A DNA stretch of 64,000 bases from a virus. This document shows positions 6,735 through 64,000 of this stretch, piece after piece. The stretch's first letter is position 1. Each line of letters opens with the position of its first letter. The stretch covers positions 9,533 to 73,532 of the IMG/VR virus record IMGVR_UViG_3300031787_000075. One strand, written 5' to 3'. The notes under the pieces were generated by a model that was not told where the DNA came from, searched no databases, and saw only the letters and a list, made by a program, of their open reading frames with translations. The position numbers were made by a program, and so were the translations under genes.

Positions 6735-6741
6735 ATATATG

Positions 6742-6749
6742 CAAATTTA
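6742..6749 (-). promoter_or_regulatory. Bacteroidota -7 promoter element (TAAATTTG)
   Basis: TAnnTTTG 7 nt upstream of ATG 6734. Confidence 0.65.
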
Positions 6750-9106: not shown

Positions 9107-9118
9107 AATGTTTCAAAA

Positions 9119-37795: not shown

Positions 37796-38093
37796 GTTTT
37801 TTATTTAAAATTTTCTTGTTTTTCTTGCTTGCAATGACAATTCCTTTTCTTACCACATACTGATTTAGTAGTCCTTGGCTCAAATACGCCTTAATTCTTT
37901 CTCCAGTATCCATTTTGGTTGACTTGTCTTTGTCAACCATTATGTACTTACCAGATCCAATATACATTAAATCGTTTTTGCCTGACACCACTAAATCACC
38001 TAACTGTCGGTCTTTATGGAAAGGCATATCAATTTTGATAATAGGCTTCCTGCTGAAAGTTCTAATACCCCAAAACCAAATCCTTTTTATCAT
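37773..38093 (-). CDS. Hypothetical protein
   Basis: Overlaps both neighbours. Confidence 0.45.
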   Translation of the reverse strand: MIKRIWFWGIRTFSRKPIIKIDMPFHKDRQLGDLVVSGKNDLMYIGSGKYIMVDKDKSTKMDTGERIKAYLSQGLLNQYVVRKGIVIASKKNKKILNKKHGVSKIK

Positions 38094-38389
38094 AGCTGTG
38101 TTAATGATTGGCCTTGGAAACTCATATACACTTTACCCTCCTTTGAACTGCCTCTATAAGTAACCGTAACCATGTAGTTCTTACCAGCTTTTACCATGGC
38201 AGGAATGTGAGAGTTTTGGCCAACGAAATCTACGGCCACAAATTGAAATCGGTCTTTTTCAGGAACCCTAAAAATAACCTTTCTTAAAGGAATACTTGTT
38301 TGTCTTCCAATATCCTTTAAATCATCTACTGATACGGCTTCTGCCACAAAACTAAAACTATCGTTTGCTAAATTTACTTGTTGATTCAT
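38090..38389 (-). CDS. OB-fold SSB-like protein (DUF3127-like)
   Basis: 'QFVAVDF.G....V..G..Y.VTV.YRG...GKVY.SFQG'; start moved to MNQQV, downstream of the promoter. Confidence 0.55.
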   Translation of the reverse strand: MNQQVNLANDSFSFVAEAVSVDDLKDIGRQTSIPLRKVIFRVPEKDRFQFVAVDFVGQNSHIPAMVKAGKNYMVTVTYRGSSKEGKVYMSFQGQSLTQL

Positions 38390-38393
38390 ATTA

Positions 38394-38423
38394 CAAAAAT
38401 ATAGGTTTTTACAATATTTCAAA
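38394..38423 (-). promoter_or_regulatory. Bacteroidota promoter (TTTG-N18-TATTTTTG)
   Basis: Both elements match consensus; 4 nt from ATG 38389. Confidence 0.65.
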
Positions 38424-47694: not shown

Positions 47695-50600
47695 CTACAT
47701 TTTTTTAGGTAATTTTCCATAAATAGATTTGATTTTATCTTTTTGGGCAGGAATTAAAGCTTTATTGGTCATTAACTTATCTAAGAAATCTTTGGCCTGA
47801 ACGTACTGCATAGGAAGGTTTCTGTTAAATGCGTACAACAATTCAAACCATTGTAATTTCTGCTCTGGTGTTATTGACTCTTTTTCGCTTAAATCATCAA
47901 CTATGTAAGATAATTCCTTAAGGTTTTCGCCAAACCTGAATTGCTTATAAGAATCCTCGAATTGCTTTGCCTCTACTGGAAACTCTTTCTTAAACTTTTT
48001 CATGTTTTCAGGCTTTACATAATCTGCAGGAGTTATGTGGTCGTCATTGAACATCTTTTCTATTTCTAGCATGTTAACGCCTTTTGACTCTAGCATAGGA
48101 TTAAAGCTGTTTTTGTGTTTTGTAACGGCTTCTAATTGCTTCCAAAACAAAGCGTATTCTCTACCTCTTTGCCATGTATTTTTAGTGGCAAAACGATATG
48201 GATTTTCAAGTAGCTTTCTTTCGCTATCGCTATTTAGTTCTAATGCAAATCTAGCGTTTGCACCAAACTGCGCTTTTAAGAAATAGTCTGTCTTCATAGG
48301 GCTTACACCAAACTTTTCTCCCATCCACTTAGCAAACTCGCTTGTGTTCTTGTTTTGTTGGTATTGACTCTCCATATTAGCGTACTCTCCTGTTACAATA
48401 GGCATTAATGTAGGGTAAGATTTAACACTTAATAAAGTATTAATTGTTGGAGAAACAGCTGTTGGAATCATTTGCAAAGCATTTGCTCCTGCCATATCGC
48501 TATCTCCAGTCAAAATACCTTCCAAAATACCTTCCGCTTGTTTAACTCCTCCTGGCAAACCCTCTCTTATTGGTGAAAAATATTGGCTTGGAGTGTATTT
48601 GAATGGTGCTTTTTTGTTTTTCTCATAAGCATAAGAAAAGGCAGCCATTTGAGAAATACCTGTGATCGCTGTAATAGATTCAGGAACCCTTACCCTAATC
48701 CATTTCAATTCAGGTCCACCCCATATAAATACATACTTGGCAAACTCTTCTGATGGTTTATTGGCCATTGCAGCAATATCATCATCATCTCCTCCTCCAT
48801 TAAACACCTGCATAATACTATACGCACTTATAAATGCTAATGTGGCAGCTAATCCTCCTCCTCGTTTTGGATTTTTCTTTATCGACTCTATGTTTTTTAG
48901 TAGCGCCTGCAATGATGCGTTCCAATAAACGTGTGACCTATAAGCTACCCTTCCAGCTCTACCAAACATTAAACCTCTTCTGTAAAAAGGGGCAGAAACA
49001 TTGGCTGCCATAAATAATGCTGTACTATCGTCATAACCTAAGTCTATTGCTCTTTTAAATTCAGCAAACCTAGTCATAATCTCTGTGGCATTAACAGGAG
49101 CGGCCAAAACATCAATGGCGGTATCAAAAACTTGTTTAGCCTTGGTTCCAATTGTTTTCTTAGGAGAAACTCTGTTAATTATTTCACCTACGGTTTCTGT
49201 TCTGTCAAAATTAAACGCCTTAGAAGCATTGAATCTATCCCCTGCTAGTGCTAAATACTTTTTAAGCAACTCTTCACCTTGCGGGGTGTCTATCTTCATT
49301 CCCAACTCGTTTAAAACAGTTCTCCATTGCGTGAATACTTGTATAGCATCTCCGGCACCAATGAAATCTCTTTTTCCTGTAGTTGAGTTTATAAAGGCAG
49401 ATATTTGGTCAATGGTAAAGTTTCTTAACGCAAATGTCGGGTTGGCGGCTGTGGTCATTAATCCAAACACATTAGCACCTGCAAACAATATCTTTTCCCA
49501 TGCACCATTCATGTCTTCCGGGCTTAATGTTGTGGCTAAAGCCTTAATCCAATCCGCTGCCTCGTAATACTGCTTGCTTCCATTTATGTAAAAACTAACA
49601 TACCCTCTGTTCTCTAAGTGGCCAAATGTAGGAACGCCACCAATCATAACAGCGGTCTTAGGTACTCTAATAAAATCTTGGTTTAGCTGTCTTTTACTTA
49701 TGCCCATGTCCTCACCATGCTCGTTAACGAATTGGGCAAATTTCATCCAAAACATATTGTTGTAACCCTTCATGATGGTTTTAGGAATATGTAAAATCAT
49801 TGCCTCTAACGGACCAATGAAAGACTTTCCTGAACTACCAGTTCTCTTTTTAAACTGTGTTAGGTTTCCTCCTTGTGAGTTTCCTCCCCCTGTCATTAAA
49901 TCGTCATGGATATATCTTTGGAAGGAAGCATAGTCTTTATTTTTAGACCATTCCTTATAAGACTCTTCACTTATTAAGCCGGTATTCCTAGCGACCTCTA
50001 ACAAATGCTCATTTATCTTATCAAAAATGGCAGTAGCATCTTTAAACTCTTTCTCAAAGGCAGCTATGCCTGCATTTACCTGCCTAATATCAAAATTATC
50101 GTTGTTTACTATGGTTCTGTACTCAACAAATTTATCAAGAAGCCTTTTAGCTATTTGGGCTTGAACAGGAGTCATTGCATCAGGGTCCGGAAAGTTTGCC
50201 ATATACATATCGTAATCGTTCTTAGCATCAACCATTCTATTATAATCCCCTTTTGCCCTCCTGTTGATTAGGTATTGATTAAATACATCTCTAACAAACT
50301 CTATATCCCTATCATTCTTTTTTGCGATCCTACCTAATTCATCCAAAATACTATTAACACTAAGTTTTTCATATTTGTAGGTTCCATTTTTTTGAATAAT
50401 GGCCATCATTTGCTTTCCATTTAACCATGCCTGGGCAATAGGTCCGCTCTGCATATTGGTAAAATAAGCAATCTCTAGGCTTTCATCACTCAATGCGGTA
50501 TCAGCTAATTCATCCAATGTCCTAAATGCGCTGCCGGTGTCGAATTGCAATGCCATATACATTTTAAATCCTACATCAGACACGTTTACGTTTTTCCATG

Positions 50601-53600
50601 AACTTTCAGCGCCAAAACCTTTTTTAACCTCTTGTTGCGCATCTGCCATCCTTAATCCTGTACTGAATATTGGTGACAACTGTTTTACACCATCCATTAT
50701 GTTAGCCATGGCATCATACAGCTTGTTCACCAATGGATGATTGTATGTTGAACCACTAACAAATACTTTATTGAATATCTCTGAATAGTCTTGCGAAATC
50801 TTAATAGGGTCCGCTAAATACTCATTCATAAACACCGCTAGACCTTCTATTACTTGTAAGCTTGTTGGGTGTGTTGGCTTGGCATTAGGATAAAATTCTT
50901 GGTAAATCTGTTTTAGTTCATTTATTAAATCCTTATCCCCTGAATCAATAATGTTTTTGGCCATACCATTTGTTTGGTCGATAAAGTGCATGCCCTCATG
51001 TATGGCAGTAAATATCTCCATCAACGATCTGGTGCCAATATATTTCTGCCTAATAAAATACGCTCCCAATGCTCTAGGAACCTTTTTCTCTCTTACAGGA
51101 ACTCCAATATCATTTAAAGCCTTTTTAACTCTGCCAGACAAACTAAAATAATCAGCTGTCAAAGGACCCATTCCTCTATCATTGTAAATGTATTGAGGAA
51201 CACCATTTCTATTTACGGCGATTTGAACATTTGGTTTAGCATTTCCTACCTCCGATATGAATTGTTGGGCAGTTTTTAGGTCTTGGTAAGCCATTGACTT
51301 TAACGAGGCAAATATTTGTTTCTGCTCTTCATTGTCGGTTGCCGCTGCCAACGCATCCATATTCTGTAAAAACTCTCTTAGCGTTTTTGCAGGCATTAAC
51401 TTGGCAGCGCTAACGGCATCAACAAAACCTTTACTTGCGCCTTGTCCAAAAACAGCTAATGCCAGGCTATCTGTCGTAACGGCTTTGTACTTTGTCTTAA
51501 CCCTTTCGTAGGCGTATCTAATCCATTCCTCTGAACCCTGTCCTAACCTTACCGCTAAATCTTTGAAATTAGTAATGCCTTGTTTTACATATAAGGCAAC
51601 TACTTTTATGAACTTACCTGCCATAACTAAGCCGGTAGGGTCGTTTTGATTTGGCCTAATGCCTAAACTCTTGTTTTTATCCCATTCCGATTTTAAATCG
51701 TCTATGGCGGCTTCTAGTTTTGTTTTTGAAACTTCATATTGTGGGCTCTCAACTTCATTAAAGATTCTTTGGCGTTCTGCCTCAAAGAATTTATCTCTGA
51801 TTGAGTTAAGCGACTTGAATTTATAAATTCTTGCTGCTTGTCCTTTAGTAAGTTCTTCTGTGTTTCTTGCGATTCCATAATCTTGGACAAATGTATTTAA
51901 TTTTTCTTTACCAAACTTATCATTCAACTTATTTAATAAATCTTTTGAAATAATTTGGTTTGGACCAAACCTGCCTTGCGCCAAATTTGTTGACAAAACA
52001 ACCTTTCCTCCGTTTTCCTCTACAAAAATTTCTAAAGCCTTCAAAGTTGCTCCGCTAGTGCTTACATCATCAATAAGAATGTATTCTTGACCTGGATTTA
52101 TTTTACCATCGAAATATACAGGTCTTAAAAGTCTTGCAGCTGGGGAAGCGCCTGTATGATAAGACCTATTTGATTGAACAATATCTGTTTCTATCTCATT
52201 TCCGTATATTTCATGTATTTTTTGAGCATAAGCCAAAGGCAGCATATTTCTACCTGTCCTTTCATTTGATATTACAGGAATTAACTTAGCGTTAGGGTAA
52301 TTAGATATGCTAGACAATCTTTCACTCTTTACTATCTTATTTACAATCTCGTAAGCTGAAATAATATCACCTGATTTAGCTTTTTCGTAATCTTTTGTTT
52401 TGACTAAATTAGAAATTGAGGTATGATTAATGTTTTCAACCTGCATTAAAGGCAATCCCCTATCAGAAAGTGCATTGTAAAGATTATCGGTTATTGGAAT
52501 AGACATTCCGGAGGTGTATCCTTTTGCGTAATCCATGTCAACATCTATTGGAGAAACCCTTACGTTTTTGTCGTACTTTCTAGCAACCTTCTCAAACGCC
52601 TTGCCTACATCGCCTATTTCACCTTCTTTTACTGAACCGTAATACTTTTTCATAGGTTCAGAACCAATAGTATGCTCGTCAACCTTTATTTCTTTTAAAC
52701 CTGTGCTATACTCTCTGCCTTCTCCATTTTTTATTTTATTGGCTATTTCAGAACCTAATAAATCTTTAACCCTATCAAAAGAAACATTTGTTTCAAAAAA
52801 AACTTCTTTGTTATTGTAAGTACCTGTTATAAAATAATTGTCGTAGGTCTTAAAGTAGTTATACTGAATAGTATCAACAACATTGGATATTCTAAATCTT
52901 TGAGAAACCTGCTCCCCAGTATTCCATGCCACAGCATCATATCCGTTTTCAACCGCGTATTTTAATGCTCTCTTAGCGGCAAGGTCTGTATAAGTTTTTT
53001 TGAATGGGGCAATTGGAGTTTTGCCTTCTTTAATTCTGTATGATTGGTCTGTAAATTCAGGGTTGTTAATCGCCCAATCCTCGGCCTCTTCTGATGAATA
53101 GAAAATAGGAGCTCCTTTTATCTTATCTCCATTCATTTTAGTGACAAAGAATTGACCTTTATAGCCATAATCTCTTCCAGCTTCATGCCTTTGGCTTTGT
53201 ATTTCGTCAATAACCATTACTTTTCTGCCATCCTCTGTAACGGAATCTCCAAACCTTAGCCACACCAAGGCTCTGCCAGTTGTTACTGTTCCAAAATGTA
53301 TATCATCATTTAGATTATATAATTCAACCTCTTTAGAATATTTTGCATTACTTGAAAATTCTCTTCCGCTTGCGTATATAACAATTTCTTTTTTATTAGA
53401 TAAATCAGGTGAGGTGTATTGTAATCTAGTTGAGTTTATTTGGTTTTCGTACTCTTCAAAATATGATTCCCTTATTTCGTCTTGAACAGCTTCTTTAATT
53501 GTATCTACTGAATTAAGAAACTTATTGGCATAATCAAGCATATCCATAGCGGTTGCAAACGCATCTGGATTTTGAATTAAATTTGAGGTTATAAGTTCTT

Positions 53601-56600
53601 GTTCTAAAACCTTTAAGGAGTCTTCGTTAGGGTTTTGATTATATTTTGTTACAGCATCTCTAACATCTTCAATATAAACCACGTCTTCTTCTGTAGCATC
53701 CCATCCTGAACCAAAAACATAATAAGAAGAGTCTTCACCTCTGCTTAAGTTATTTTCACTTAAAAACAGTCTAGCTTCGGCTATTGTGGCTCCATCTAAA
53801 CTGCTTTTCTTTTCTGTTGACAGTATCTTTTCAGCAATCTCAACCTTGTTTTCTTTCAAAAACTTTAATGCAGCATCCTTAGTGATTTTATTGTACTTGT
53901 TCTCTTCAATGTAATCCTCGAAGCCGGTCCAATAAACCTCTTCTCTGTCCAATAACCCTTCGTTTGCTCTTGCCTCAATCCAATCCTTCCATTGCGCTCC
54001 GGTCATGGTGTTGCCTTTTTGTTCAATAGCTGAATTTAGTCTGCTGTACCAGTCAACAACAATTGTTTTGGCAGTTTTATCCTTGGCAATGTCTTGAATA
54101 GCGGCTTTGTCAAACATGGTTTTAACAGCGGCTTGTGTAAAGGCATCTAAATCCATTTCAGACAATTGTTTGGCAGTAACCTTGTCTAGGCCAACTATAT
54201 CTTTAATTGCTTGCCAAAACTCTTTTAGCCACTCCGTAAAGCCTTTCTTTTCATTGGCAGCCATTACCACTCCTTTGTCTGCAATGGCTCTTACTAGGGC
54301 TTCTTCTTGCTTCTGTTTGTACGTTAATTTAGCATAGGCAGGATTGTTCTCCACCTCTTCTAAATACTTGCTACCCACAACCAATTCCAAACCTCTTCTT
54401 AAAACATCGGGTCTGTGTTCTGAAAGCAATTTAGTAAAGGCATGGCCAAACTCATGTATTGGCGTTTCAGGTCTTGCTAGTCTTGGGTCGATATAAACCC
54501 TGTCCTTATAAAAAGCACCTAAGACTTCGCCTGTGCTAACTTTTTCAAACGAAATTATATCCTCTATGCTTATAGCGTTTTCGTTAAATACTACATAATT
54601 GAATCCTCTTGCGTTGCCACTTGTTGCTCCTCTTGCTATGCTTTCAGCAGGGTATTTAATGCCATCAATGCCGTTTTCTAAAAGAAATAATGATGCTTGC
54701 TTTCCCCACTCTACTTTATATTCGTCTCCGAAAATCTTCACCAACTCACTATACAGCTCTTTGCCTTTTATTGCAGTTGAAACTCTACCATCAAACCCTT
54801 TTTCTTCAATAGCTTTATTTATTTTAATTACATCAGTAAGGCTCACTTCTTTATCCCATTCCAACCAAGTGTATTCGCTTGGGGTTTTGCCTTTGTGTAA
54901 TGATACCTTGTATAGATTTCTATTTTTATTACCAACTAAAAGCTTGTTAAGGTCACTTTGAGTTGACGCAACTAAAAAATCAATAGCTTTTTGCACAGTA
55001 ACTGAATTGTGGATGCCATCATTAATTTTACTTGTTAAATTTTTTATTAACACATCTTTGTCAAGGCTCATTTCTTCTTTTATGGCCACATCAGCAAATA
55101 CTGGTATATTCTTATTTAGAACTCCTTGAATTTGTATTTTTCTAGCATAATCTTTAGCTATGCTTTCTAAATCAGTAAAATATAATCCCCATCCAAACGC
55201 TTGTGCGCCTTCGCCTGTACCTATCTTAGATAATTCAAATTTGTTAAATTTAAAAGGTGAACCATGATAAACTTCTACTTGGGCCAAGTAATCGCCTGCA
55301 ATCATCCACCTAAAACTAGGCTCAACAACCACTTCGTCAACTACACCCTCAAAACTATCTGTTAAAGCCTTGGTTAAATTATCTCTGAACTCAACCTCTG
55401 ACTCTGTTAATGGAAAGTCAACTGTTTCTTTCTGCAGCTTTGGGCCTCCACTAATCCATTCCAAAAATTCTTTTGCTGATGCCTCTGTCTTGAATTGGAA
55501 ACCAGGTATTGCGCCTTGCGCTTTGTATGAAGAGTAATTTCCTCCCAATTCTTTGGCTTTAGCATTGGCAGGGGCAAAATCATCTATTCTAACATTCATT
55601 TTAACCACCCAGTTATCTCTCTTCTCCTTGGCATGGTAGTTTTTAATAAGTTCAAACTGATTTTTGTTTTGGCCCTGACTAGGTGATGAACCCTGTTTTG
55701 GCTCCATATCAATTGTTGGTGGAACACCCATGTCCTCTATTTCATCGAACAATTCTTTTATAGTAACCAAATCTTTTAGCATAGTGTTGGGAGCGCCTAG
55801 CGTGCTTCCTCCCATTGCTGCCACCTTATTTCTTAAATCTTCATCGCTTATCTTGTCTATGATAACTATTTGAGTGTTTACATTGGTTCCTGCCTTTTCA
55901 AATGTTACAGGAGGCAATTTTATTACAGCCCTTAAAACAGCGTTTTCAGGTGCGTTTTCTCCATACAAAAAGTTGTTTAACCTTTCATCCATCTTGCCTT
56001 GTGGAACCAAAGCCACAACCCTTCCACCATCTCTTAGGTGCTGAAATGCTTTTGCCAAGTGATCCATTGCTGTTTTTCCGGCATGGCCAAATGGTGGGTT
56101 CATTACAATCCTATCGTACTTATTAACTAATGCTAGGTCTTCAAACCTATCGCCAAAGTGATTTGAGTTTTTATGAGAAAGCATGGCAGCTTGTGAACGT
56201 AAATCTGCACTTGGCTCTATGATATCTAAACCAGTTAATTCAGGCACATATCTAGCTATACTTCCTGAACCAGCACTTGGCTCTAAAACCTCTTGTCCTG
56301 GCTTAATATCTGCCCACTCAACAATTTTAAAACCTAATGGCTCTGGAGTAGGATAGTAGTCAACCCCTTCCGGTTCTCTGTTTCTTGACCTTTTTTGTCT
56401 TAAATGATAGTGTTGAATAGCTTTTTGGTAGGCACTTAGCTGATTTAATTGCTTGTCATAGGTTTTGCCTCCTACACCATAATCTCCCGAATCTAGTTTT
56501 GAATAAAACTCTTCTACTGGAATAGCTTCTAGGTATCCTGTTCTAAGAGTTTCCTCCATTCCTCTAGCATCATTTCCTAGTGCGAAATTTTCTGTGGTTC

Positions 56601-59600
56601 CAGATCTAGGCGCTGACTTGTCTGACCAAATAAACCTTTCAAAATTAGTGTGTATTGCAGGATACAAAAATACAGCATTACTCCTGTTTCCAACCCTGAA
56701 AATTCTACCCTCCGGCTGAATAGCATCGTTACTCATAATAGGAATACCTAGGTTTATCTCAACCCTTTGAGCGTTTCCTAATTGGTCATGTAAGTCAATA
56801 CCGGCTTTACCCGCTTCCTTTTGAACTATAATGATGTTTTTATTAGCGCTTTCGTTAAACTCATTTATAATTGATAACCTTTTCGACTTGCTTACGCTTC
56901 CGTTAAATACCAATGATTGAGAAGGGAAATTGCTAGTGATGGTGGCAATAGGGTTTACCAATCCTGTCATATCCAAATTATAAAACTCTGGATACTTTTG
57001 ATTAAACTCCTTTATCTTGGTTTGAATCTGTTGAATCCTTGCCATTGCGCCTTCATGTGAACCAGCTGCTTTGGCAATTTCTTCTGCAGTAAAATGAAAT
57101 GGATGGCTTGGTGCACCTTCATTGTAGTTATGGAATATTACAATTTTCTTGTTTTGGCTTAATAGCTTTTCAATTAAAGGTATTGACATTTTTGCCTTGT
57201 AGGCTTCAAGCAATCTCATGGTGTATAAGAAATTGAACTTTTTAAGCACTAAATCCCTTAGCTTAAATTCATCGCTTTCCAATACTTGAATACCCTTATC
57301 AATCATTCTGCCTATCCCTTGCTCTCCTTCCGGGTCCAAAAACAATATAAAGGTTCTGCTATAATCATATTCAGAATCTAACATTCTAGTGAATAGAACG
57401 CCTTCTGCTTTCAGTTTCTCATGAAACTCTCTTTCCAAGAAGCCTTGGTCAACTCCTCTGCCTCCCGACTTATCCTTTACTTTTCCGTAATCATTTACTC
57501 TCCAGGCAAAGTTTTGGGCCATGAATTGGGTTTGACTTCTCTGCCCATTCTTGTCTTTAGGATAATCAAATAAAAACCCTTCTGCATAATCTAAGGCAGG
57601 GCTAGAAGCAAATGGAGTAGCTGACATGAAAACAACCTTTGTCATGCCCTGCATCCTTTCAGATTCGGCTTCTATTAACTTTTCATAAGCCTTTCTTTCA
57701 GCATTTCTTAGTTCAACCAACTCGTTTAGTCTTGCTCTTTTTTGTGCGACAGTTCTAAGGAAAGAAACAATATCTTCATTTCTGCCAGTTTCCATTTCCT
57801 GTTCCAAAGACTGTATTTCTTCATTTAGTCTTTGTAATTCAGGGCTACCTATTCTTGATTCCGCGATTTTTCTTGTTGTGCTATAATGTTTGGCAGCTAT
57901 CCTTAATGCGTTTACGGCATTGGTACTTTTGCCTTCTTGGCTACTCATGATTTGGTCTGATTCATCGACAACAATCATATCCCAATCCTGATTCTGAACA
58001 TTTTCATTATCCCTGAAATTGGCATGAGTAGTAACCACTAAATTATAACCATCCCCTACATCTTTTGTGTCTTGTAGGTTATAGGCATCCATATTAAACC
58101 ATGATGCCTCATTTACAAACTTATTATTAATAGATTGCTTTGGAGTTAAAACTAAAACCCTTCTTTCTTTTCCGAAATCCTCTCTAACCTCTACCTTTTT
58201 ATCTTCCGATTTTAAGGTGTCGGCAAAATCATTGGCTTCTTTTTCGGATTGAAACCTTCTTACCGGCTTGTTATTTACATAAACCTGAAACCCATCCTGC
58301 CTGCCTTCTTTGATAAACCTTTTTACAATAGCCAAGGCAGTTGAGGTTTTTCCTGTACCAGTTCCATTGGTAAATAAAATACCTTTTTTGCCTTGTGTAA
58401 ACAATGCGTTTTCTGCCCTAAAAACATCTTCCTTTTGAGAGTCTAAGGCAAATGGAACCGTAAAGTTTATGTTCTCTTTATCGGAAACAATAACAGGCAC
58501 AGGTTCGGCAGCTAATTGAAGCGCCTTTTTCTCGTCAAATGTTAGTTTTGGCGAAGGCGTGTTTCCATCGCTTTCCTTGCCTTTTCCTGCTCCTCTTCCG
58601 TCATTCCCGGATTGTCCAGTAGGAGTATTTCCATTGCCTGTTCCACTGTTTCCACCACCGGAATTATTTCCCTGTCCTCCGGATTTACCGCTAGGTGTTC
58701 CTGAACCGCCTCCTGCTCCAGAAGAAGCGCCAGTACCTCCTGAACCGCTTCCTGGAGTACCGGATCCTGAATTGTTGTTAGGCTGATTGCCTTGTTGGTT
58801 TCCACTAGGTCCTGAACCTCCTTGGTCTTTAGTGGGGTCGTCTGTGCCACCCTCTTCATTATCTGCTGTATCATCTTGTTCGGTATTTAATTCTGTGATA
58901 AAATTCTCTACATAAGACCTTACCTGCGCTCTATTGCTCATTTTGTCGGCAATATCATCATCGACACTAATCATTTCAGCGCTGTAAACTTTAACCAAGG
59001 CAGGCAATTTATCGTACAAAACTGTGTCACCAGCTTTGGCTCTTACAACCTCTGCTATCCTTGGAAAATCATAAATGCCTTTTTCAAAAAACTGATTTAT
59101 AAATCTTTTTCCGGCAGCCATTTGCTCCGGAGTTAATTCTTTCTTTAAGAAATCGCTAACGCTGCCTTCAAATAGCTTTTGTTGCGACTCCTCTCCAATT
59201 CTTACATTCTTTTCTTGGTTCCTTATAATATCCAATTGCTTTAAAGCCATTTCGTATCTAGCACGTTTTGGCCTTAATATTTGGTCTAAGGTATTTCCTT
59301 CTACTCCCTCTTTTCTAGCCCTAGATTTTGTATCGTCTAAATCTTTTGAGGCTTCCTTTAATTCCTTTTTAGCAGCAGCAAGAGTTTTTTCATAATCCTT
59401 TCTTATGTCCGACTTTCCGGATTCAGGTCCAGATCCAAATAAATCTGCCTCTCCTAACATATCCAAATCATCCATATTGAAATCATCTAGGTTTAAGTTG
59501 TCGATACTTGGACCTGATTTTTTCTTTGGTTTTGGAGTTGATTTCTTAGCGGAAGGCGCTGTTTTTTCTACAAAAAACTTGTCTTCTATGTTTTTGAAAA

Positions 59601-62600
59601 ATTCTTTTGCTGACAATGTTATGGTTTCAGTATGCTCTGAACCATCTTTAGGTTCTGACATTTCTACGCTAACGAAATTGGTGTTGCCCTCTCTTGGAGT
59701 TGCTATAATCCTATTGTAATATTCGCTTTCAAAAACCTTTCCTTTTGTAGCTTCTAGTATTTCTGTTTCAGGTGCTAATTCAAATGACTGCCATTTTTCT
59801 GCAGGAAGCTTTTCGCTGTAAACCACATATCCGAACCTAGAACCATCGGTTTGTTCAAATCTTAAAAAAGTATCTTCTTTAGGGTATGAACCAATTGTGA
59901 ATGGCCTGTTTCTTAATTCGTATCTATACTCTTTTGATTCTGGAGTTGTTTTTGACTTGTATTCTGATGGCATTATAAAATCAGAATCTTTTAACTTAAC
60001 TGTATTCTCGTATAAGTCTTTGCCTTCTTGGATAGCTTTTTTAATTAATAAATCATCAATATTGTTTGGAAGATTTCCATCATCAATAATACCTGCATAA
60101 CTCATTCCAGACCTATCAGGCTGACCATTTATAATTGTTTGAGGATTACTCATTCTTAATCCAACAACTCTATATTTTTTACCATTTCTTTCTATGATTT
60201 TAATGAAAGACTTGGTATTGTTTTGCCCATCTGTAGTTCTTGGGTCAAACACTTCTTTATATTGAGCAGAATCTTTGTTTGTCCTTTCTTTTGTTCTATT
60301 ACTTACCGCAAAACCATCAAATAAACCAAATACAAATATTTTACTATTAATAGCTTCGTTTACTTCTTGCTTTTCTTCTTCGCCTTTTCCATCACCATCT
60401 TTTTCAACTTTATCGCCAGTTTCTCCCTTGGAGTCAACTCCTTGCTGTTTTTTTCTGTTTTCATCTATTAATTGTTTGATTTTTTTAGCTAATGCAGGTT
60501 CTTTTATTGAGGTTCCTTCTTTTGAAGGATTGAATTTATCTGTGAAATAATGAACAAAACCTCCGAATTGACTTAGGTATTCTCCTTTAAGCCATTCATC
60601 AACCATTTTTTCAACCTCTTCTAAATTGCCTTCTTGTTCCATCCATAACAACATCTCCTCCACCTCTTCGTCACTAAACTCTGAAACAAATTCGTCTATT
60701 TGATTTAGTAAATCAGGGTTTTCAAGACTCTGTCTGTCAATATTGTTTTGTAATTCAATTTGCTTTATCCTTTCATTGATATATGAAGTTGCACCTCCAG
60801 GATTTTCAATAATGAAATCGGTAATTTTCTTAATAACATCTTTTTCGTCTTTTCCGTAAAATACTGATTGTTCATCATCTATCATGAAGCTTACAAATTC
60901 GTCTAAGGATTGGGCACCTGGCCTGCTAGTAAACCAATTTAAAGCATAAGGATTTCCTCTTTTTTTGCCTGTTTCAAAAAGATTTCTATCGGAAAGGCTT
61001 TTAATGCTTTCCATTTTAAATCTTGAACCCTCTAGTTCTTGTGCTAAAAAGTCTGTTTCGTTTTGGGCTTCAAATCTAGGTTTCTTTTTTGGTTTACCCT
61101 GTTTGGCCTTTCTTTCTTCATCCCATGCCTCTTCCTCTGCTTCTTGGACCTCTTGTAGGTAAATCTCGTAAGCATCTTCAACCATCTTCTTTTCATCAGG
61201 TGGCAATGCGTTAAATTCGTCTAGGGTTAATCCTCTTTCCTCTAAAAACTTATCCCTAAAACCTGACATTGCTTTTTGATAAGCTTCATCATTTTCTTGG
61301 CCCAAACCTGTTAGTTCTTGTTTTTGGGCTTCGGGTTCAGGAATTTCAACCTCCATATCCTTAAGCTTGTCCTCAAACCAAACAGAATTTGACTTTACTA
61401 TTTCTAGTTCATTTGGTTCTAATGGCAAACCCATTATGATTTTGTCGGCAATGTCGTTTAACTCTTGTTCAGGATCACCCTCAACCCCTTCGCTGCCTTC
61501 TTCATCTGCTGTCAAAGGCATTGCACCGGCTCCATCACTTGGGCTAGGTGGTGTGCTAGGTGGTGTAACAGGTGGTTCACCTCCCTCTGAAACAGGTGTT
61601 TCAGTTTCTTGTGTTGGCTCGGCAGGAACGCTATCTTTATTTGATTCATCCCTTTTTAATTTATCCAAAAGCATTTGGTCCCTTGTCTTAACAAATGGGG
61701 CAATTGCTTTATATGCGGCATCTCTAACAGCTGTTTGGTTCTCATCGTTCAACGCATCGTAACTTGCTCCAAACATTGACTTGGATTTTGCTCTAACCTC
61801 ATCCCAATACATTTTTGAGTTCATGTTTTGAAGCACAGCAAGTCTTTGCTCTGGAGTCAAATTGGTTTTACCTAATTCTGTGTTCAGCCAATTAGAAGCC
61901 TCTACTTTACCTTTAGGGGAAAATACTTTTGAAGCTATATCTAATGGAATCTCAATTTCAGCTATCTCTCCATCGCCTTTTCTGTAATTAACCTTGTAAG
62001 TCCTGTTTTCTCCCATGTATTTGGCAGATAAACCAACTAATTGCATAGGAACCTGAATAAGCCCTGTTACAGCGGCAGTTTCTTTAAAAAACTCCGGAGT
62101 AAACGAGGTTCCAAATTGCCTATTATACATAAAATCTTCTGCGGCTGCTGCTGCATACTCTTCTATGTTCTCACCTATAATACCATTTAAACCTGTGGCA
62201 TCCTTTAGTTCTTTCAATGTCTTTTGGAAAGAATTAGGATTTAAACCTCCATTCTTTCTTAACATCGTGGCAATTATCATTCTCTTGGCCCACTCGTTAT
62301 TTCTAGCCAATGTCTTTACAAGCTGTTCCGAAACCTCTCCACCTAATGCTCCTCCAATTCTTTCACTTAAGTTCTCTTTAAGGTTGTCTAGGAAAGCATA
62401 AGCAAAAGCTTCAACTGGGTCCATTCCTTTGCCTGTTTTTTGGCCCAACAAGTCGTATTGAGAGCGGTCCAATATAGCCACCATCTCGTCTATTCCTACG
62501 ACATCATTTCCTGCTGTTTTCTGTTTATCGGCATCGACATCCATCCCAAAGGCAAATTTGACCTCCGGGTTCATGTGTTCTACAAATGACTTACCCCACT

Positions 62601-64000
62601 TTACTGGGTCTGCGGCTGTTCTTGCCATTTCTCCCACAATTACAGATATGGGTTGAGCAACTCCGTATTTGAAAGCTGCTTTTTCAGCATACTTTTTACC
62701 AGCTTTTAAAATAAGCTCTTTTACGGCTGTTCTTGCAGGTGCGGCAGCAAAGTTTCCTGCTGCCATATCTACCATGTAAGGAACACTAATGGTTGTAATC
62801 TCTCCTGCAGTAAATCCAAAAGTAGGTTTTGCGTCTTGCTGATAGGCTTGGTCCATACCTAAACTATGTAACAGCAATTTTTCTCCATCTGTTAATGGAA
62901 CACCGTTTTTAACCTTTTTATTTATATCGTAAAGCTTTAGGTTGTTAGATAGTTCTAATGCAGTTTTAACATAAGGTATTGGCAAATTTTTGCCGTATTT
63001 AAAGCCGTAACCTATACCTTCTGACAGGGTTCCACCACCAAGTTCAGGTCTAGCTAGTGTGGCTCTGATTTGGTCTTCTGCCTGCTTTAAAGTTCCTAAA
63101 TCTTCATTATACTTTTCATTGGTAACGACAGGAACAGCACCAAAACCGCCTATATTCATAGACAATCCAGGTGTTTCAGGACCTTTATTCTTTTCTAATT
63201 CGGCTTTTTCTGCCTCTATTTCTTTTAATGCGTCTTGGGCCCAATCTCTTACTCCGTAACTTGTAACATCACCTTTTGGTGTTCTACTTGCAGCCATTAC
63301 AAACTCGGAGAAATATTGCTCTCTGTATTTTTCTATGAAATCTTTGTTGTAACCCTTTTTCTCTAACATGGCTCTTGTCGAATCCCATGTAGCGGCAATA
63401 ATCCTTTTCTTATCGTCAAAGTTCATTTGTTTGAACCTATCTGAATTGGCTATGCTATTAATAGTGTATATGGCACGATTGGACAATACCCTGTCTTTTA
63501 AAACAGCTTGTTGATACCTTCTTTCGGCTTCTGAATTAAAGTAGGTTTGTAATTTAGGTTTAACAACCGACTCAAATTCTTGCTCCCATAAACCGCTAAC
63601 AGCATCGTTCAACTCTTTGTTTAAAGATTCATTCAAACCTTTTAATGCTGCTTCTGCGTCTTGTTTTGATAACTGGCCTTGTTGATACGCGGCAGCTAGT
63701 TCTTTGTTTTTTTGCTCGTACTTAGATACTAATTCGGATTTAACCTTGTTTATAGTGGCAGAAGCCTTATCGGATTTAACCCAATTTTCATACTCTTCTT
63801 TGGCTTTTTGCTGTTGCTCTTCCTCTGTTATTTTAGCTGCCTCTACATAATCTAGCTGCCTGTCTGCTTTGTTCTTTATAACCTCTTTCAGCTTTGGAAC
63901 AGCATTGGCCATGGCAACATTGTCTGCTACTGCAGATAGTATTAATTGCGCCTTTTGATCTGGATTAGGTTCCTTGCCTTGAAATTCAGGTTCAGTATAT
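47695..64000 (-). CDS. Giant DarB-like polyvalent (putative ejected virion) protein, >5400 aa, 5' end outside the window
   Basis: Frame stays open from 63912 to the window edge. Domains: DarA_C-like (~59770-59930), SF2 helicase (GTGTGKT ~58350, DESD, MSATP, GIDLHD, QPEGRIFR), N6-MTase (LEPSAGSG, NPPF ~56100), ART-like (YHGSP..GWGLYFT), HEFGH and HEGMH zincin motifs, PRTase (IDDVSTSGATL ~52060), LPD38-like C-terminus. Confidence 0.9.
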   Translation of the reverse strand, partial: YTEPEFQGKEPNPDQKAQLILSAVADNVAMANAVPKLKEVIKNKADRQLDYVEAAKITEEEQQQKAKEEYENWVKSDKASATINKVKSELVSKYEQKNKELAAAYQQGQLSKQDAEAALKGLNESLNKELNDAVSGLWEQEFESVVKPKLQTYFNSEAERRYQQAVLKDRVLSNRAIYTINSIANSDRFKQMNFDDKKRIIAATWDSTRAMLEKKGYNKDFIEKYREQYFSEFVMAASRTPKGDVTSYGVRDWAQDALKEIEAEKAELEKNKGPETPGLSMNIGGFGAVPVVTNEKYNEDLGTLKQAEDQIRATLARPELGGGTLSEGIGYGFKYGKNLPIPYVKTALELSNNLKLYDINKKVKNGVPLTDGEKLLLHSLGMDQAYQQDAKPTFGFTAGEITTISVPYMVDMAAGNFAAAPARTAVKELILKAGKKYAEKAAFKYGVAQPISVIVGEMARTAADPVKWGKSFVEHMNPEVKFAFGMDVDADKQKTAGNDVVGIDEMVAILDRSQYDLLGQKTGKGMDPVEAFAYAFLDNLKENLSERIGGALGGEVSEQLVKTLARNNEWAKRMIIATMLRKNGGLNPNSFQKTLKELKDATGLNGIIGENIEEYAAAAAEDFMYNRQFGTSFTPEFFKETAAVTGLIQVPMQLVGLSAKYMGENRTYKVNYRKGDGEIAEIEIPLDIASKVFSPKGKVEASNWLNTELGKTNLTPEQRLAVLQNMNSKMYWDEVRAKSKSMFGASYDALNDENQTAVRDAAYKAIAPFVKTRDQMLLDKLKRDESNKDSVPAEPTQETETPVSEGGEPPVTPPSTPPSPSDGAGAMPLTADEEGSEGVEGDPEQELNDIADKIIMGLPLEPNELEIVKSNSVWFEDKLKDMEVEIPEPEAQKQELTGLGQENDEAYQKAMSGFRDKFLEERGLTLDEFNALPPDEKKMVEDAYEIYLQEVQEAEEEAWDEERKAKQGKPKKKPRFEAQNETDFLAQELEGSRFKMESIKSLSDRNLFETGKKRGNPYALNWFTSRPGAQSLDEFVSFMIDDEQSVFYGKDEKDVIKKITDFIIENPGGATSYINERIKQIELQNNIDRQSLENPDLLNQIDEFVSEFSDEEVEEMLLWMEQEGNLEEVEKMVDEWLKGEYLSQFGGFVHYFTDKFNPSKEGTSIKEPALAKKIKQLIDENRKKQQGVDSKGETGDKVEKDGDGKGEEEKQEVNEAINSKIFVFGLFDGFAVSNRTKERTNKDSAQYKEVFDPRTTDGQNNTKSFIKIIERNGKKYRVVGLRMSNPQTIINGQPDRSGMSYAGIIDDGNLPNNIDDLLIKKAIQEGKDLYENTVKLKDSDFIMPSEYKSKTTPESKEYRYELRNRPFTIGSYPKEDTFLRFEQTDGSRFGYVVYSEKLPAEKWQSFELAPETEILEATKGKVFESEYYNRIIATPREGNTNFVSVEMSEPKDGSEHTETITLSAKEFFKNIEDKFFVEKTAPSAKKSTPKPKKKSGPSIDNLNLDDFNMDDLDMLGEADLFGSGPESGKSDIRKDYEKTLAAAKKELKEASKDLDDTKSRARKEGVEGNTLDQILRPKRARYEMALKQLDIIRNQEKNVRIGEESQQKLFEGSVSDFLKKELTPEQMAAGKRFINQFFEKGIYDFPRIAEVVRAKAGDTVLYDKLPALVKVYSAEMISVDDDIADKMSNRAQVRSYVENFITELNTEQDDTADNEEGGTDDPTKDQGGSGPSGNQQGNQPNNNSGSGTPGSGSGGTGASSGAGGGSGTPSGKSGGQGNNSGGGNSGTGNGNTPTGQSGNDGRGAGKGKESDGNTPSPKLTFDEKKALQLAAEPVPVIVSDKENINFTVPFALDSQKEDVFRAENALFTQGKKGILFTNGTGTGKTSTALAIVKRFIKEGRQDGFQVYVNNKPVRRFQSEKEANDFADTLKSEDKKVEVREDFGKERRVLVLTPKQSINNKFVNEASWFNMDAYNLQDTKDVGDGYNLVVTTHANFRDNENVQNQDWDMIVVDESDQIMSSQEGKSTNAVNALRIAAKHYSTTRKIAESRIGSPELQRLNEEIQSLEQEMETGRNEDIVSFLRTVAQKRARLNELVELRNAERKAYEKLIEAESERMQGMTKVVFMSATPFASSPALDYAEGFLFDYPKDKNGQRSQTQFMAQNFAWRVNDYGKVKDKSGGRGVDQGFLEREFHEKLKAEGVLFTRMLDSEYDYSRTFILFLDPEGEQGIGRMIDKGIQVLESDEFKLRDLVLKKFNFLYTMRLLEAYKAKMSIPLIEKLLSQNKKIVIFHNYNEGAPSHPFHFTAEEIAKAAGSHEGAMARIQQIQTKIKEFNQKYPEFYNLDMTGLVNPIATITSNFPSQSLVFNGSVSKSKRLSIINEFNESANKNIIIVQKEAGKAGIDLHDQLGNAQRVEINLGIPIMSNDAIQPEGRIFRVGNRSNAVFLYPAIHTNFERFIWSDKSAPRSGTTENFALGNDARGMEETLRTGYLEAIPVEEFYSKLDSGDYGVGGKTYDKQLNQLSAYQKAIQHYHLRQKRSRNREPEGVDYYPTPEPLGFKIVEWADIKPGQEVLEPSAGSGSIARYVPELTGLDIIEPSADLRSQAAMLSHKNSNHFGDRFEDLALVNKYDRIVMNPPFGHAGKTAMDHLAKAFQHLRDGGRVVALVPQGKMDERLNNFLYGENAPENAVLRAVIKLPPVTFEKAGTNVNTQIVIIDKISDEDLRNKVAAMGGSTLGAPNTMLKDLVTIKELFDEIEDMGVPPTIDMEPKQGSSPSQGQNKNQFELIKNYHAKEKRDNWVVKMNVRIDDFAPANAKAKELGGNYSSYKAQGAIPGFQFKTEASAKEFLEWISGGPKLQKETVDFPLTESEVEFRDNLTKALTDSFEGVVDEVVVEPSFRWMIAGDYLAQVEVYHGSPFKFNKFELSKIGTGEGAQAFGWGLYFTDLESIAKDYARKIQIQGVLNKNIPVFADVAIKEEMSLDKDVLIKNLTSKINDGIHNSVTVQKAIDFLVASTQSDLNKLLVGNKNRNLYKVSLHKGKTPSEYTWLEWDKEVSLTDVIKINKAIEEKGFDGRVSTAIKGKELYSELVKIFGDEYKVEWGKQASLFLLENGIDGIKYPAESIARGATSGNARGFNYVVFNENAISIEDIISFEKVSTGEVLGAFYKDRVYIDPRLARPETPIHEFGHAFTKLLSEHRPDVLRRGLELVVGSKYLEEVENNPAYAKLTYKQKQEEALVRAIADKGVVMAANEKKGFTEWLKEFWQAIKDIVGLDKVTAKQLSEMDLDAFTQAAVKTMFDKAAIQDIAKDKTAKTIVVDWYSRLNSAIEQKGNTMTGAQWKDWIEARANEGLLDREEVYWTGFEDYIEENKYNKITKDAALKFLKENKVEIAEKILSTEKKSSLDGATIAEARLFLSENNLSRGEDSSYYVFGSGWDATEEDVVYIEDVRDAVTKYNQNPNEDSLKVLEQELITSNLIQNPDAFATAMDMLDYANKFLNSVDTIKEAVQDEIRESYFEEYENQINSTRLQYTSPDLSNKKEIVIYASGREFSSNAKYSKEVELYNLNDDIHFGTVTTGRALVWLRFGDSVTEDGRKVMVIDEIQSQRHEAGRDYGYKGQFFVTKMNGDKIKGAPIFYSSEEAEDWAINNPEFTDQSYRIKEGKTPIAPFKKTYTDLAAKRALKYAVENGYDAVAWNTGEQVSQRFRISNVVDTIQYNYFKTYDNYFITGTYNNKEVFFETNVSFDRVKDLLGSEIANKIKNGEGREYSTGLKEIKVDEHTIGSEPMKKYYGSVKEGEIGDVGKAFEKVARKYDKNVRVSPIDVDMDYAKGYTSGMSIPITDNLYNALSDRGLPLMQVENINHTSISNLVKTKDYEKAKSGDIISAYEIVNKIVKSERLSSISNYPNAKLIPVISNERTGRNMLPLAYAQKIHEIYGNEIETDIVQSNRSYHTGASPAARLLRPVYFDGKINPGQEYILIDDVSTSGATLKALEIFVEENGGKVVLSTNLAQGRFGPNQIISKDLLNKLNDKFGKEKLNTFVQDYGIARNTEELTKGQAARIYKFKSLNSIRDKFFEAERQRIFNEVESPQYEVSKTKLEAAIDDLKSEWDKNKSLGIRPNQNDPTGLVMAGKFIKVVALYVKQGITNFKDLAVRLGQGSEEWIRYAYERVKTKYKAVTTDSLALAVFGQGASKGFVDAVSAAKLMPAKTLREFLQNMDALAAATDNEEQKQIFASLKSMAYQDLKTAQQFISEVGNAKPNVQIAVNRNGVPQYIYNDRGMGPLTADYFSLSGRVKKALNDIGVPVREKKVPRALGAYFIRQKYIGTRSLMEIFTAIHEGMHFIDQTNGMAKNIIDSGDKDLINELKQIYQEFYPNAKPTHPTSLQVIEGLAVFMNEYLADPIKISQDYSEIFNKVFVSGSTYNHPLVNKLYDAMANIMDGVKQLSPIFSTGLRMADAQQEVKKGFGAESSWKNVNVSDVGFKMYMALQFDTGSAFRTLDELADTALSDESLEIAYFTNMQSGPIAQAWLNGKQMMAIIQKNGTYKYEKLSVNSILDELGRIAKKNDRDIEFVRDVFNQYLINRRAKGDYNRMVDAKNDYDMYMANFPDPDAMTPVQAQIAKRLLDKFVEYRTIVNNDNFDIRQVNAGIAAFEKEFKDATAIFDKINEHLLEVARNTGLISEESYKEWSKNKDYASFQRYIHDDLMTGGGNSQGGNLTQFKKRTGSSGKSFIGPLEAMILHIPKTIMKGYNNMFWMKFAQFVNEHGEDMGISKRQLNQDFIRVPKTAVMIGGVPTFGHLENRGYVSFYINGSKQYYEAADWIKALATTLSPEDMNGAWEKILFAGANVFGLMTTAANPTFALRNFTIDQISAFINSTTGKRDFIGAGDAIQVFTQWRTVLNELGMKIDTPQGEELLKKYLALAGDRFNASKAFNFDRTETVGEIINRVSPKKTIGTKAKQVFDTAIDVLAAPVNATEIMTRFAEFKRAIDLGYDDSTALFMAANVSAPFYRRGLMFGRAGRVAYRSHVYWNASLQALLKNIESIKKNPKRGGGLAATLAFISAYSIMQVFNGGGDDDDIAAMANKPSEEFAKYVFIWGGPELKWIRVRVPESITAITGISQMAAFSYAYEKNKKAPFKYTPSQYFSPIREGLPGGVKQAEGILEGILTGDSDMAGANALQMIPTAVSPTINTLLSVKSYPTLMPIVTGEYANMESQYQQNKNTSEFAKWMGEKFGVSPMKTDYFLKAQFGANARFALELNSDSERKLLENPYRFATKNTWQRGREYALFWKQLEAVTKHKNSFNPMLESKGVNMLEIEKMFNDDHITPADYVKPENMKKFKKEFPVEAKQFEDSYKQFRFGENLKELSYIVDDLSEKESITPEQKLQWFELLYAFNRNLPMQYVQAKDFLDKLMTNKALIPAQKDKIKSIYGKLPKKM
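51714..51878 (-). CDS. Candidate overprinted 54-aa ORF nested in the giant gene (+1 frame)
   Basis: MESQETQKNLLKDKQQEFINSSRLTQSEINSLRQNAKESLMKLRAHNMKFQKQN*; TACATTTG -7 element at 51888-51895, 9 nt upstream of the ATG. Confidence 0.55.
   Translation of the reverse strand: MESQETQKNLLKDKQQEFINSSRLTQSEINSLRQNAKESLMKLRAHNMKFQKQN
58542..58874 (-). CDS. Candidate overprinted 110-aa ORF nested in the giant gene (+1 frame)
   Basis: Present in the ORF track; amphipathic, acidic, helical sequence exactly spanning the Gly/Ser/Asn linker before the helicase. Confidence 0.5.
   Translation of the reverse strand: MIQQIMKRVAQTTPLKTKEVQDLVETNKAISLTTIQDPVLQEAVQEVLALLLEQEAVQEHLAVNPEDREIIPVVETVEQAMEILLLDNPGMTEEEQEKARKAMETRLRQN
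60360..60464 (-). CDS. Candidate overprinted 34-aa ORF nested in the giant gene (+1 frame)
   Basis: MKTEKNSKELTPREKLAIKLKKMVMEKAKKKSKK*, preceded by an A-rich leader. Confidence 0.35.
   Translation of the reverse strand: MKTEKNSKELTPREKLAIKLKKMVMEKAKKKSKK

Follow-up and report, generated by a model that had tools for sequence, protein, structure and literature searches.

Nested genes are known from phages. In the Rz/Rz1 pair of lambda, for example, a larger gene contains a small one that is read in the +1 frame from a start of its own, and the two products are considered to work together. We examined a candidate for such a nested gene in a stretch of 64,000 nucleotides from a virus (IMG/VR record IMGVR_UViG_3300031787_000075, positions 9,533 to 73,532), referred to below as the window, where a 54-codon open reading frame (ORF) lies in the +1 frame over the end of a phosphoribosyltransferase (PRTase) module of a giant polyvalent protein. 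What the PRTase does in polyvalent proteins has been described as enigmatic (Iyer et al. 2017, PMC5512222). Other described systems that can be set beside this locus are the MuF and polymorphic toxin-immunity cassettes (Jamet et al. 2017, PMC5576092) and ShosTA, in which the PRTase-fold toxin ShosT is paired with the antitoxin ShosA (PMC11961720). An original prediction, made from the letters of the window, had proposed that the +1 ORF is a separately transcribed antidote or regulator that travels with the PRTase domain and has its own host-type promoter, and in a wider sense that each toxic domain swapped into such proteins would bring along its inhibitor in an overlapping frame. Our support for the gene and for its function is all comparative, and it leads us to conclude with high confidence that the +1 ORF is a real gene, overprinted on the PRTase module, inherited together with it and as yet unannotated.

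The features on which this conclusion depends are the following.

47695..63999, minus strand: giant polyvalent protein gene (ORF listing, Pfam), its 5' end lying beyond the window edge
51757..52401, minus strand: PRTase module in the main frame, 215 aa (Pfam, AlphaFold2, Foldseek, alignment)
51714..51878, minus strand: putative overprinted small gene in the +1 frame, encoding MESQETQKNLLKDKQQEFINSSRLTQSEINSLRQNAKESLMKLRAHNMKFQKQN (coordinates, frame, homologues, profile score)
51847..51852, minus strand: invariant main-frame Leu-Thr (CTT ACT), corresponding to L184 and T185, invariant in alignments A1 and A3
51765..51818, minus strand: most constrained core of the small gene, +1 residues 21-38, SSRLTQSEINSLRQNAKE (conserved columns, invariant third positions, AlphaFold2 model)

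The small ORF was found exactly as had been predicted, with its ATG at 51878-51876, 54 sense codons and a TAG at 51716-51714 on the minus strand, in the +1 frame of the giant ORF 47695..>63999. The module beneath it includes the catalytic DD motif (ILIDDVSTSG) and the C-terminal helices that the small gene overlaps. Its match to PF00156 is weak (16 bits against a curated cut-off of 26.3) and its NCBIfam matches likewise fall below their cut-offs. The AlphaFold2 model of the module has a mean predicted local distance difference test score (pLDDT) of 92 and a predicted template modelling score of 0.87, and residues D111, D112, V113, T115 and G117 are invariant in the module alignment. A Foldseek comparison of the model with the PDB gave 42 matches at E<=0.001 and, among the matches listed, all are PRTase-fold proteins or domains; the first is ShosT (8zvc, E 5.8e-5, TMq 0.38) and the fourth is the ComF protein of H. 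pylori (7p0h). ShosT is also the top PADLOC match of the module (E 4.3e-6). These likenesses to ShosT and ComF are weak and limited to the core that binds phosphoribosyl pyrophosphate (PRPP). With both the DD motif and the predicted PRTase fold present, the sequence and the model place the host frame in the PRTase superfamily. The overlapped stretch of the main frame was also claimed not to be of low complexity, and this agrees with the model, in which the overlap encodes the confidently predicted helices 186-193 and 198-214.

No close relative was found in phage records (blastn) or in viral and genome contigs (single-protein scans), and for this reason distant homologues were used to examine conservation. 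The region search brought up a homologous module, 30-37% identical, in eight giant proteins, and in these the homology continues through the stretch overlapped by the ORF, including the invariant Leu-Thr. By means of that alignment 120 loci were gathered from viral, genome and metagenome contigs, the selection being made on the host frame only. Together with the window this gave 121 copies, of which 108 have the Leu-Thr anchor and represent 86 distinct sequences, leaving 13 others. The 86 distinct modules have 26-42% identity and a GC content of 0.30-0.71. An equivalent +1 ORF is present in 80 of them, two of these being cut by a contig end, and the +1 frame is full of stops in 6 of the 86. 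The 78 complete ORFs begin with ATG in 76 cases and with GTG in two, and 77 encode 52-69 aa, the remaining one reaching 91 aa. The distance from start to anchor is mostly 14-16 codons (range 6 to 28, with 10 in the window). At the Leu-Thr site itself, the +1 frame stays open with CTT or CTC as the Leu codon only, and the anchor codon is CTC or CTT in 27 of the 27 loci listed.

The peptides encoded by these ORFs are alike. The alignment of 66 of them (A2) has the consensus ...S-P-x-x-K-P-x-T-S-S-x-S-E-x-L-T-x-S-E-x-E-x-L-R-Q-..., with the common core S-x-x-L-T-x-S-E-I-E-x-L-R-Q, and positions L24, E28 and L32 are at least 90% conserved. The original prediction had proposed that the +1 ATG, the stop codon and the peptide would be conserved among homologous modules, and at the distance of the homologues available this is what we observed. 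Among the 13 loci outside the anchor set, 6 have an intact ORF, 2 are without it, 4 are variants and 1 is frameshifted. The last of these observations concerns L031, in which the C-terminal part of the module continues in another frame, as expected of a frameshifted gene or of a sequencing error. A PRTase variant with an inserted, different C-terminal region occurs in L013, L016, L078 and L085, relatives of P0010 and P0011; there more than 100 codons of the +1 frame are free of stops but unrelated in sequence, and the copies are too alike to judge coding.

The setting of the module varies among three kinds: it may be part of a giant protein, the C-terminal end of a mid-sized protein, or a solo gene of about 230-430 codons. 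INDEPENDENCE from the host gene is seen in 15 of the 78 copies, where the small ORF continues 1-32 codons beyond the PRTase stop and enters DNA that is otherwise intergenic. The genes flanking the solo loci differ from one locus to another, and no shared partner was seen; when 10 neighbour proteins were scanned, 4 had Pfam matches (SPASM, RmlD_sub_bind, Y1_Tnp and Phage_integrase) and 6 matched none. One solo copy adjoins an integrase. Because the neighbours vary in this way, the ORF is the sole constant companion of the module, and it accompanies the giant, the C-terminal and the solo architectures, which bears out the proposal that it travels with the PRTase. As a separate observation, the Burkholderia phage vB_HM795 (OR990505.1, 27728-33919), a complete genome, has a solo PRTase gene beside an integrase; the PRTase is labelled as a hypothetical protein, the 64-codon overlapping ORF is unannotated, and this is the only complete phage record that we found with the module.

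Coding in the +1 frame was compared with a recoding null, in which the host-frame codons are drawn anew according to the usage of each locus, tabulated outside the overlap; the codon-usage nulls rest on about 2.6 kb per locus. In the window, where codons for the same amino acids were drawn according to the usage of the giant gene, 4 of 2000 recodings kept the +1 frame open. The window peptide scored 35.6 bits against a +1 profile of the homologues that had been built without it, as compared with a mean of 1.8 and a maximum of 23.7 bits for 2000 recodings. Among 67 representatives the +1 frame is open in all 67, against 6.6 predicted by recoding, a count for which the representatives were picked among ORF carriers and whose unbiased equivalent is 80 of 86. 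An ATG stands at the start in 65 of the same representatives (30.3 predicted), and in those with a GC content of at least 0.5 a Shine-Dalgarno (SD) motif is found in 41 of 51 (16.0 predicted). The typical SD motif is GGAGG, built from rare host-frame AGG Arg codons and located 7-8 nt before the ATG.

Synonymous constraint was measured in 44 representatives of less than 60% identity, using the codons at aligned identical residues. The fraction of identical codons was 0.573 (10787/18833) under the ORF versus 0.346 (21485/62123) in the PRTase core, and the highest fraction in 27 equal-width blocks of the core was 0.365. Synonymous variation is therefore suppressed, as the original prediction would have it, and the constraint is restricted to the overlap, where several host-frame third positions are identical in 24 of 24 representatives. 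The amino-acid identity of the +1 frame under the ORF was 0.313 versus 0.171 expected, the maximum in 200 simulations being 0.18, and in the +1 frame of the core it was 0.193, though the core is better conserved in the host frame.

A tree was built from PRTase residues 1-172, upstream of the overlap, and rooted at its midpoint; 80 of 97 rows were used, the other 17 having been dropped as incomplete. The rows in which the ORF is absent form a single group.

L077, L084, L098, L104, L111, L118, L062 and L064: ORF-less clade, short solo PRTases, from the tree

This clade holds all 8 ORF-less rows (support 100/99), the 3 variant rows group in a second one (100/100), and intact copies of the ORF lie on both sides of the midpoint root. 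Since all of the ORF-less rows are in one clade, a single event would account for the absence, and on this tree the ORF appears to be as old as most of the family. The ORF-less modules retain the host-frame motif LTNSQAKYLLRF, yet there are many stops in their +1 frame, which shows that an open +1 frame is not dictated by the sequence of the host frame.

The predicted structure of the small protein is consistent with the helical peptide and helix cap that had been described for it. The constrained core at 51765..51818 contains a capping box (T25-x-x-E28) and the beginning of a long helix, which the AlphaFold2 model of the peptide extends over residues 26-53 at pLDDT 89-98. Because this helix begins directly after T25, the reading of LTQSE as a helix cap fits the model. 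The helix is amphipathic, with hydrophobic positions spaced 3-4 apart. The N-terminal half has low confidence (pLDDT about 60), the N-terminal part of the peptides contains 23% Ser and 12% Pro, and their median net charge is +4; this Ser/Pro/Thr/Lys-rich half of the protein is probably disordered.

Searches with the peptide did not assign it to any known family. Five Pfam families were each matched by merely 1-2 of 66 peptides with nothing consistent among them, PHROGs gave 2 single-member matches, and no match was obtained in PADLOC, in NCBIfam or in the plasmid collection. A profile search of the PDB had a best E-value of 0.17, and the ESM Atlas returned unnamed clusters only, with scores of at most 0.88. 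From database proteins the profile search recovered 11 members of 55-79 aa, all hypothetical or unnamed, so by these searches the small protein would seem to belong to no known family. Longer in-frame fusions of the peptide were absent among 8,000 candidates, which is weak evidence. Among the papers searched we found none that describes an overlapping gene in a PRTase module; in the main text of PMC5512222 the words 'overlapping' and 'frameshift' have 0 occurrences each.

The giant ORF is taken to encode a polyvalent protein from its set of Pfam domains, which are DarA_C, a ResIII/DEAD helicase, ART-PolyVal, LPD38, LPD14 and a weak Pribosyltran. The part of the protein within the window exceeds 5,400 aa, and the full protein has 5,655 aa on a contig of 73,459 bp. 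Two other +1 ORFs of the giant gene were noted. The longest, at 58542-58874 on the minus strand, has 110 codons and lies over a linker of low complexity rich in Gly, Ser and Asn, so that its openness is probably automatic; no region homologous to it was found in P0004-P0011. A 58-codon +1 ORF at 55407-55583, also on the minus strand, lies just upstream of the ART-PolyVal (ADP-ribosyltransferase) domain and has no homologous DNA for comparison.

Two structural genes in the window are relevant to the host of the phage.

6776-9106: portal protein gene
9119-11461, minus strand: large terminase gene

The terminase matched 85 phage records, and in 84 of these the phage is one of Flavobacterium, Cellulophaga or Maribacter, the identity being about 26%; an SD-like motif precedes just 10 of 56 gene starts in the window. 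Based on these terminase relatives and on the scarcity of SD motifs, the host is probably a member of the Flavobacteriia. The ATG of the small gene in the window lacks an SD, and adenines stand at -3 and -6. In Flavobacterium, SD sequences are ignored by the ribosomes and initiation is favoured by adenines at -3, -6, -12 and -13 (Baez et al. 2019, PMC6847099). The missing SD in the window therefore fits a Bacteroidota host.

Promoter-like boxes were located at the following positions.

51888..51895, minus strand: TACATTTG, a Bacteroidota -7-type box 9 nt upstream of the ATG of the small gene, fitting TAHHTTTG, with G at -5
51912..51919, minus strand: TAAGTTTG, a second box of the form TAnnTTTG, with a G at the fourth position that TAHHTTTG excludes
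9106-9121, 6734-6749 and 38389-38401, minus strand: TAHHTTTG boxes that end 4-7 nt upstream of three ATGs, those of the portal gene and of the structural gene following it, and an in-frame start within ORF 38090-38422

Both of the TAnnTTTG boxes on which the idea of a separate promoter had been founded are thus where they were reported, the first at a distance of 9 nt from the ATG. The -7 element of Flavobacterium spans T-12 to G-5 and is better written as TAHHTTTG (PMC6847099), a form that TACATTTG fits; if this box were used, it would imply a transcription start site near 51883 and a leader of about 5 nt. The second box, TAAGTTTG, is probably a by-product of conserved main-frame K-F-G residues, as L001 and L056 carry TAAATTTG at the equivalent K-F-G codons. 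The comparison with ordinary genes that share the short spacing also held, with TAAATTTG 7 nt before the ATG at 6734 and TATTTTTG 4 nt before the ATG at 38389. Across the window a box with a gap of 4-9 nt precedes 19 of 2365 ATGs, including the gene starts at 9106, 6734 and 38389. The boxes at these three starts would give leaderless mRNAs or mRNAs with a leader of 3 nt, an unusual class for Flavobacteriia, and predicted transcripts have leaders of more than 10 nt in 87% of cases (PMC6847099). A box just before the ATG may represent a real near-leaderless promoter class in this phage.

The relatives do not share the box, as a TAnnTTTG anywhere within 80 nt upstream was found in just 4 of 78 homologues, and the expectation that it would be conserved was not borne out. 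With the box in so few homologues and an SD in most, a separate transcript is not a feature of the family. What stands of the proposed host-type promoter is that TACATTTG fits TAHHTTTG and is placed as at three gene starts of the window, and what falls is its conservation in relatives. A separate promoter for the small gene is therefore possible in this Flavobacteriia-type phage. In hosts that use SD sequences, the small gene would be translated by internal initiation on the PRTase mRNA, for which GGAGG and the ATG would suffice, and in the Flavobacteriia-type phage its message would be a near-leaderless internal transcript or else the long mRNA.

The best explanation for these data overall, and one we consider likely, is that a genuine overprinted gene lies on the last helices of a mobile-element PRTase module, with a product that would act together with the PRTase. 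The gene encodes a small protein (54 aa here) in which a probably disordered N-terminal half is followed by the capping box L-T-x-S-E and by an amphipathic helix some 28 residues long. It is old, was lost or is absent in one clade, and is inherited with the module whatever protein carries it. The small protein would be a cognate partner that binds the PRTase domain and acts on it or with it. Of the single roles, the likeliest, which we propose tentatively and by analogy, at somewhat less than an even chance, would be that of an antidote, an immunity protein or a labile regulator. Two considerations suggest it. The ORF lies at the 3' end of the effector or slightly beyond it, as do the proposed MuF immunity ORFs, and the pairing of a toxic PRTase with a labile antitoxin has a precedent in ShosTA, to which the disordered N-terminal half of the peptide may be added.

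Several observations have to be counted against this interpretation. In the giant gene the ORF ranks third by length among 6 same-strand +1 ATG ORFs of at least 40 codons, the length and the N-terminal composition of the peptide are typical of frames that merely follow the host frame, and TAnnTTTG occurs 92 times in the window versus 91.5 expected from shuffles. Because the length of the ORF and the TAnnTTTG count are both at chance level, neither was used as an argument. The loci are related, so that pooled counts overstate their independence, despite the use of 44 representatives of less than 60% identity. As for the role, the 8 ORF-less PRTases keep the DD motif and most of the invariant residues, and no relocated copy of the peptide was found within about 1 kb of their flanks; a search of the six frames of the ORF-less and variant loci gave a best E-value of just 0.16. 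An antidote is therefore not obligatory for the PRTase fold. Finally, Iyer et al. propose that the PRTase makes or senses a nucleotide during DNA entry (PMC5512222).

The explanation that competes best with the antidote is that the small protein is real and does something other than inhibit the PRTase. Candidate roles are those of an independent anti-defence or regulatory factor, of a basic helix that binds nucleic acid, or of a subunit for activation or assembly, and the conserved stretch would be no more than a safe genomic home for it. We regard this as a serious possibility, if one that falls short of an even chance. A median net charge of +4 and an amphipathic helix would suit many kinds of partner, PRTases with an intact DD motif exist without the ORF, and none of the known immunity or antitoxin families matches the peptide; the description of the PRTase's own role as enigmatic (PMC5512222) is also in keeping with it. 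Against such a role stand the strict co-inheritance of the ORF with one module across unrelated architectures and neighbourhoods, and its placement at or just past the effector 3' end, which is like that of polymorphic-toxin immunity genes.

It is improbable that the +1 frame is reached by frameshifting from the PRTase frame, which would give a truncated PRTase with an alternative C-terminal helix. A database protein of 79 aa (P0022) does join a host-frame N-terminal part to a +1 C-terminal part, but it comes from a single contig of 1,096 bp and may be an assembly error. Similarly, GC-rich loci have 20-170 open codons ahead of the ATG in the +1 frame, but many loci have a stop a few codons upstream of the start. 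Moreover, frameshifting is at odds with an ATG that is kept near the Leu-Thr anchor in 76 of 78 ORFs and with an SD 7-8 nt upstream in 41 of 51 GC-rich representatives.

A constraint on the nucleic acid itself, either an RNA structure or a DNA site, with the open +1 frame as a side effect, is very improbable. The host-frame third positions are strongly conserved over about 25 codons, as such an element would have it, but the residues of the +1 frame persist through changes of codon. In one conserved +1 Leu column (64 of 66 sequences) each of the six Leu codons occurs, in a second CTG, TTG and TTA are found, and the Arg of L-R-Q is encoded by AGR as well as CGN codons; this points to selection acting on the +1 amino acids and not on the nucleotides. 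RNAalifold gave 0 consensus pairs for 30 sequences, and the RNA-structure explanation was rejected on this result. A nucleic-acid element would also leave the conserved ATG, SD, stop position and open frame unexplained.

That the ORF is a functionless chance by-product of host-frame conservation and codon bias is scarcely credible, for although the window ORF is just the third longest +1 ORF in the gene and TAnnTTTG is at chance frequency, every recoding control contradicts it, and the ORF-free clade shares the host-frame motif yet has a closed +1 frame.

The antidote reading can be taken one step further, to a model that we offer as speculative and on balance unlikely. The PRTase domain of polyvalent proteins from phages and conjugative elements would be a self-contained two-protein cassette, in which an ancient +1 gene encodes the cognate labile antidote or regulator, which shuffling cannot separate from its domain and whose start signals are re-tuned for each host. 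This re-tuning would take the form of an internal SD in Proteobacteria-type elements and of an A-rich, near-leaderless start behind TAHHTTTG in the Flavobacteriia-type phage. If the antidote reading is true, the effector-immunity pair would have been made recombination-proof, and similar arrangements would be worth seeking in other shuffling effector domains.

From tailed phages and prophages, same-strand overlapping genes with deep conservation have rarely been documented, and such genes are discarded by annotation pipelines. The present case, with at least 44 lineages of less than 60% identity and a host GC content of 0.30-0.71, is an unusually clean data set for dual coding, in which the ORF-less clade is a natural 'minus' set and single mutations that are silent in one frame can separate the two functions. 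It also provides a handle on the enigmatic PRTase, in the form of a partner of 55-65 aa that is kept with the domain whatever the role of the latter in DNA entry.

Comparing the locus with the systems introduced at the beginning, the PRTase domain of Iyer et al. is the same as the host frame here, sharing the DD motif, the solo and polyvalent settings and a ComF-like flavour. In PMC5512222 the domain is reported mainly from Proteobacteria and Verrucomicrobia, whereas the present copy belongs to a phage with a terminase related to those of phages that infect Flavobacteriia; the occurrence of the PRTase in a polyvalent protein of such a phage would widen the range listed there. ShosTA (PMC11961720) likewise has a PRTase-fold protein, one from the phage-bacterium conflict, and ShosT is the top Foldseek and PADLOC match of the module, which has solo copies beside prophage integrases. 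However, ShosA is a separate DNA-binding protein and not an overlapping peptide of 60 aa, and the likeness to ShosT is a weak one, confined to the PRPP-binding core. The MuF and polymorphic toxin-immunity cassettes (PMC5576092) resemble the locus in having a small ORF without a known family at the 3' end of a phage-borne effector domain. Their immunity genes are described as downstream and non-overlapping, whereas the small gene here lies mostly or wholly inside the effector codons.

Nested phage genes are already known as a kind, and what would be new here is a deeply conserved overprinted gene in a shuffling effector domain. In common with Rz/Rz1, a small +1 gene with its own start lies inside a larger phage gene. 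In contrast to that pair, the peptide is without lipoprotein or membrane features, the host frame encodes an enzymatic effector domain, one that is shuffled among giant polyvalent proteins and solo genes, and the two have been conserved together across phyla-level differences between hosts.

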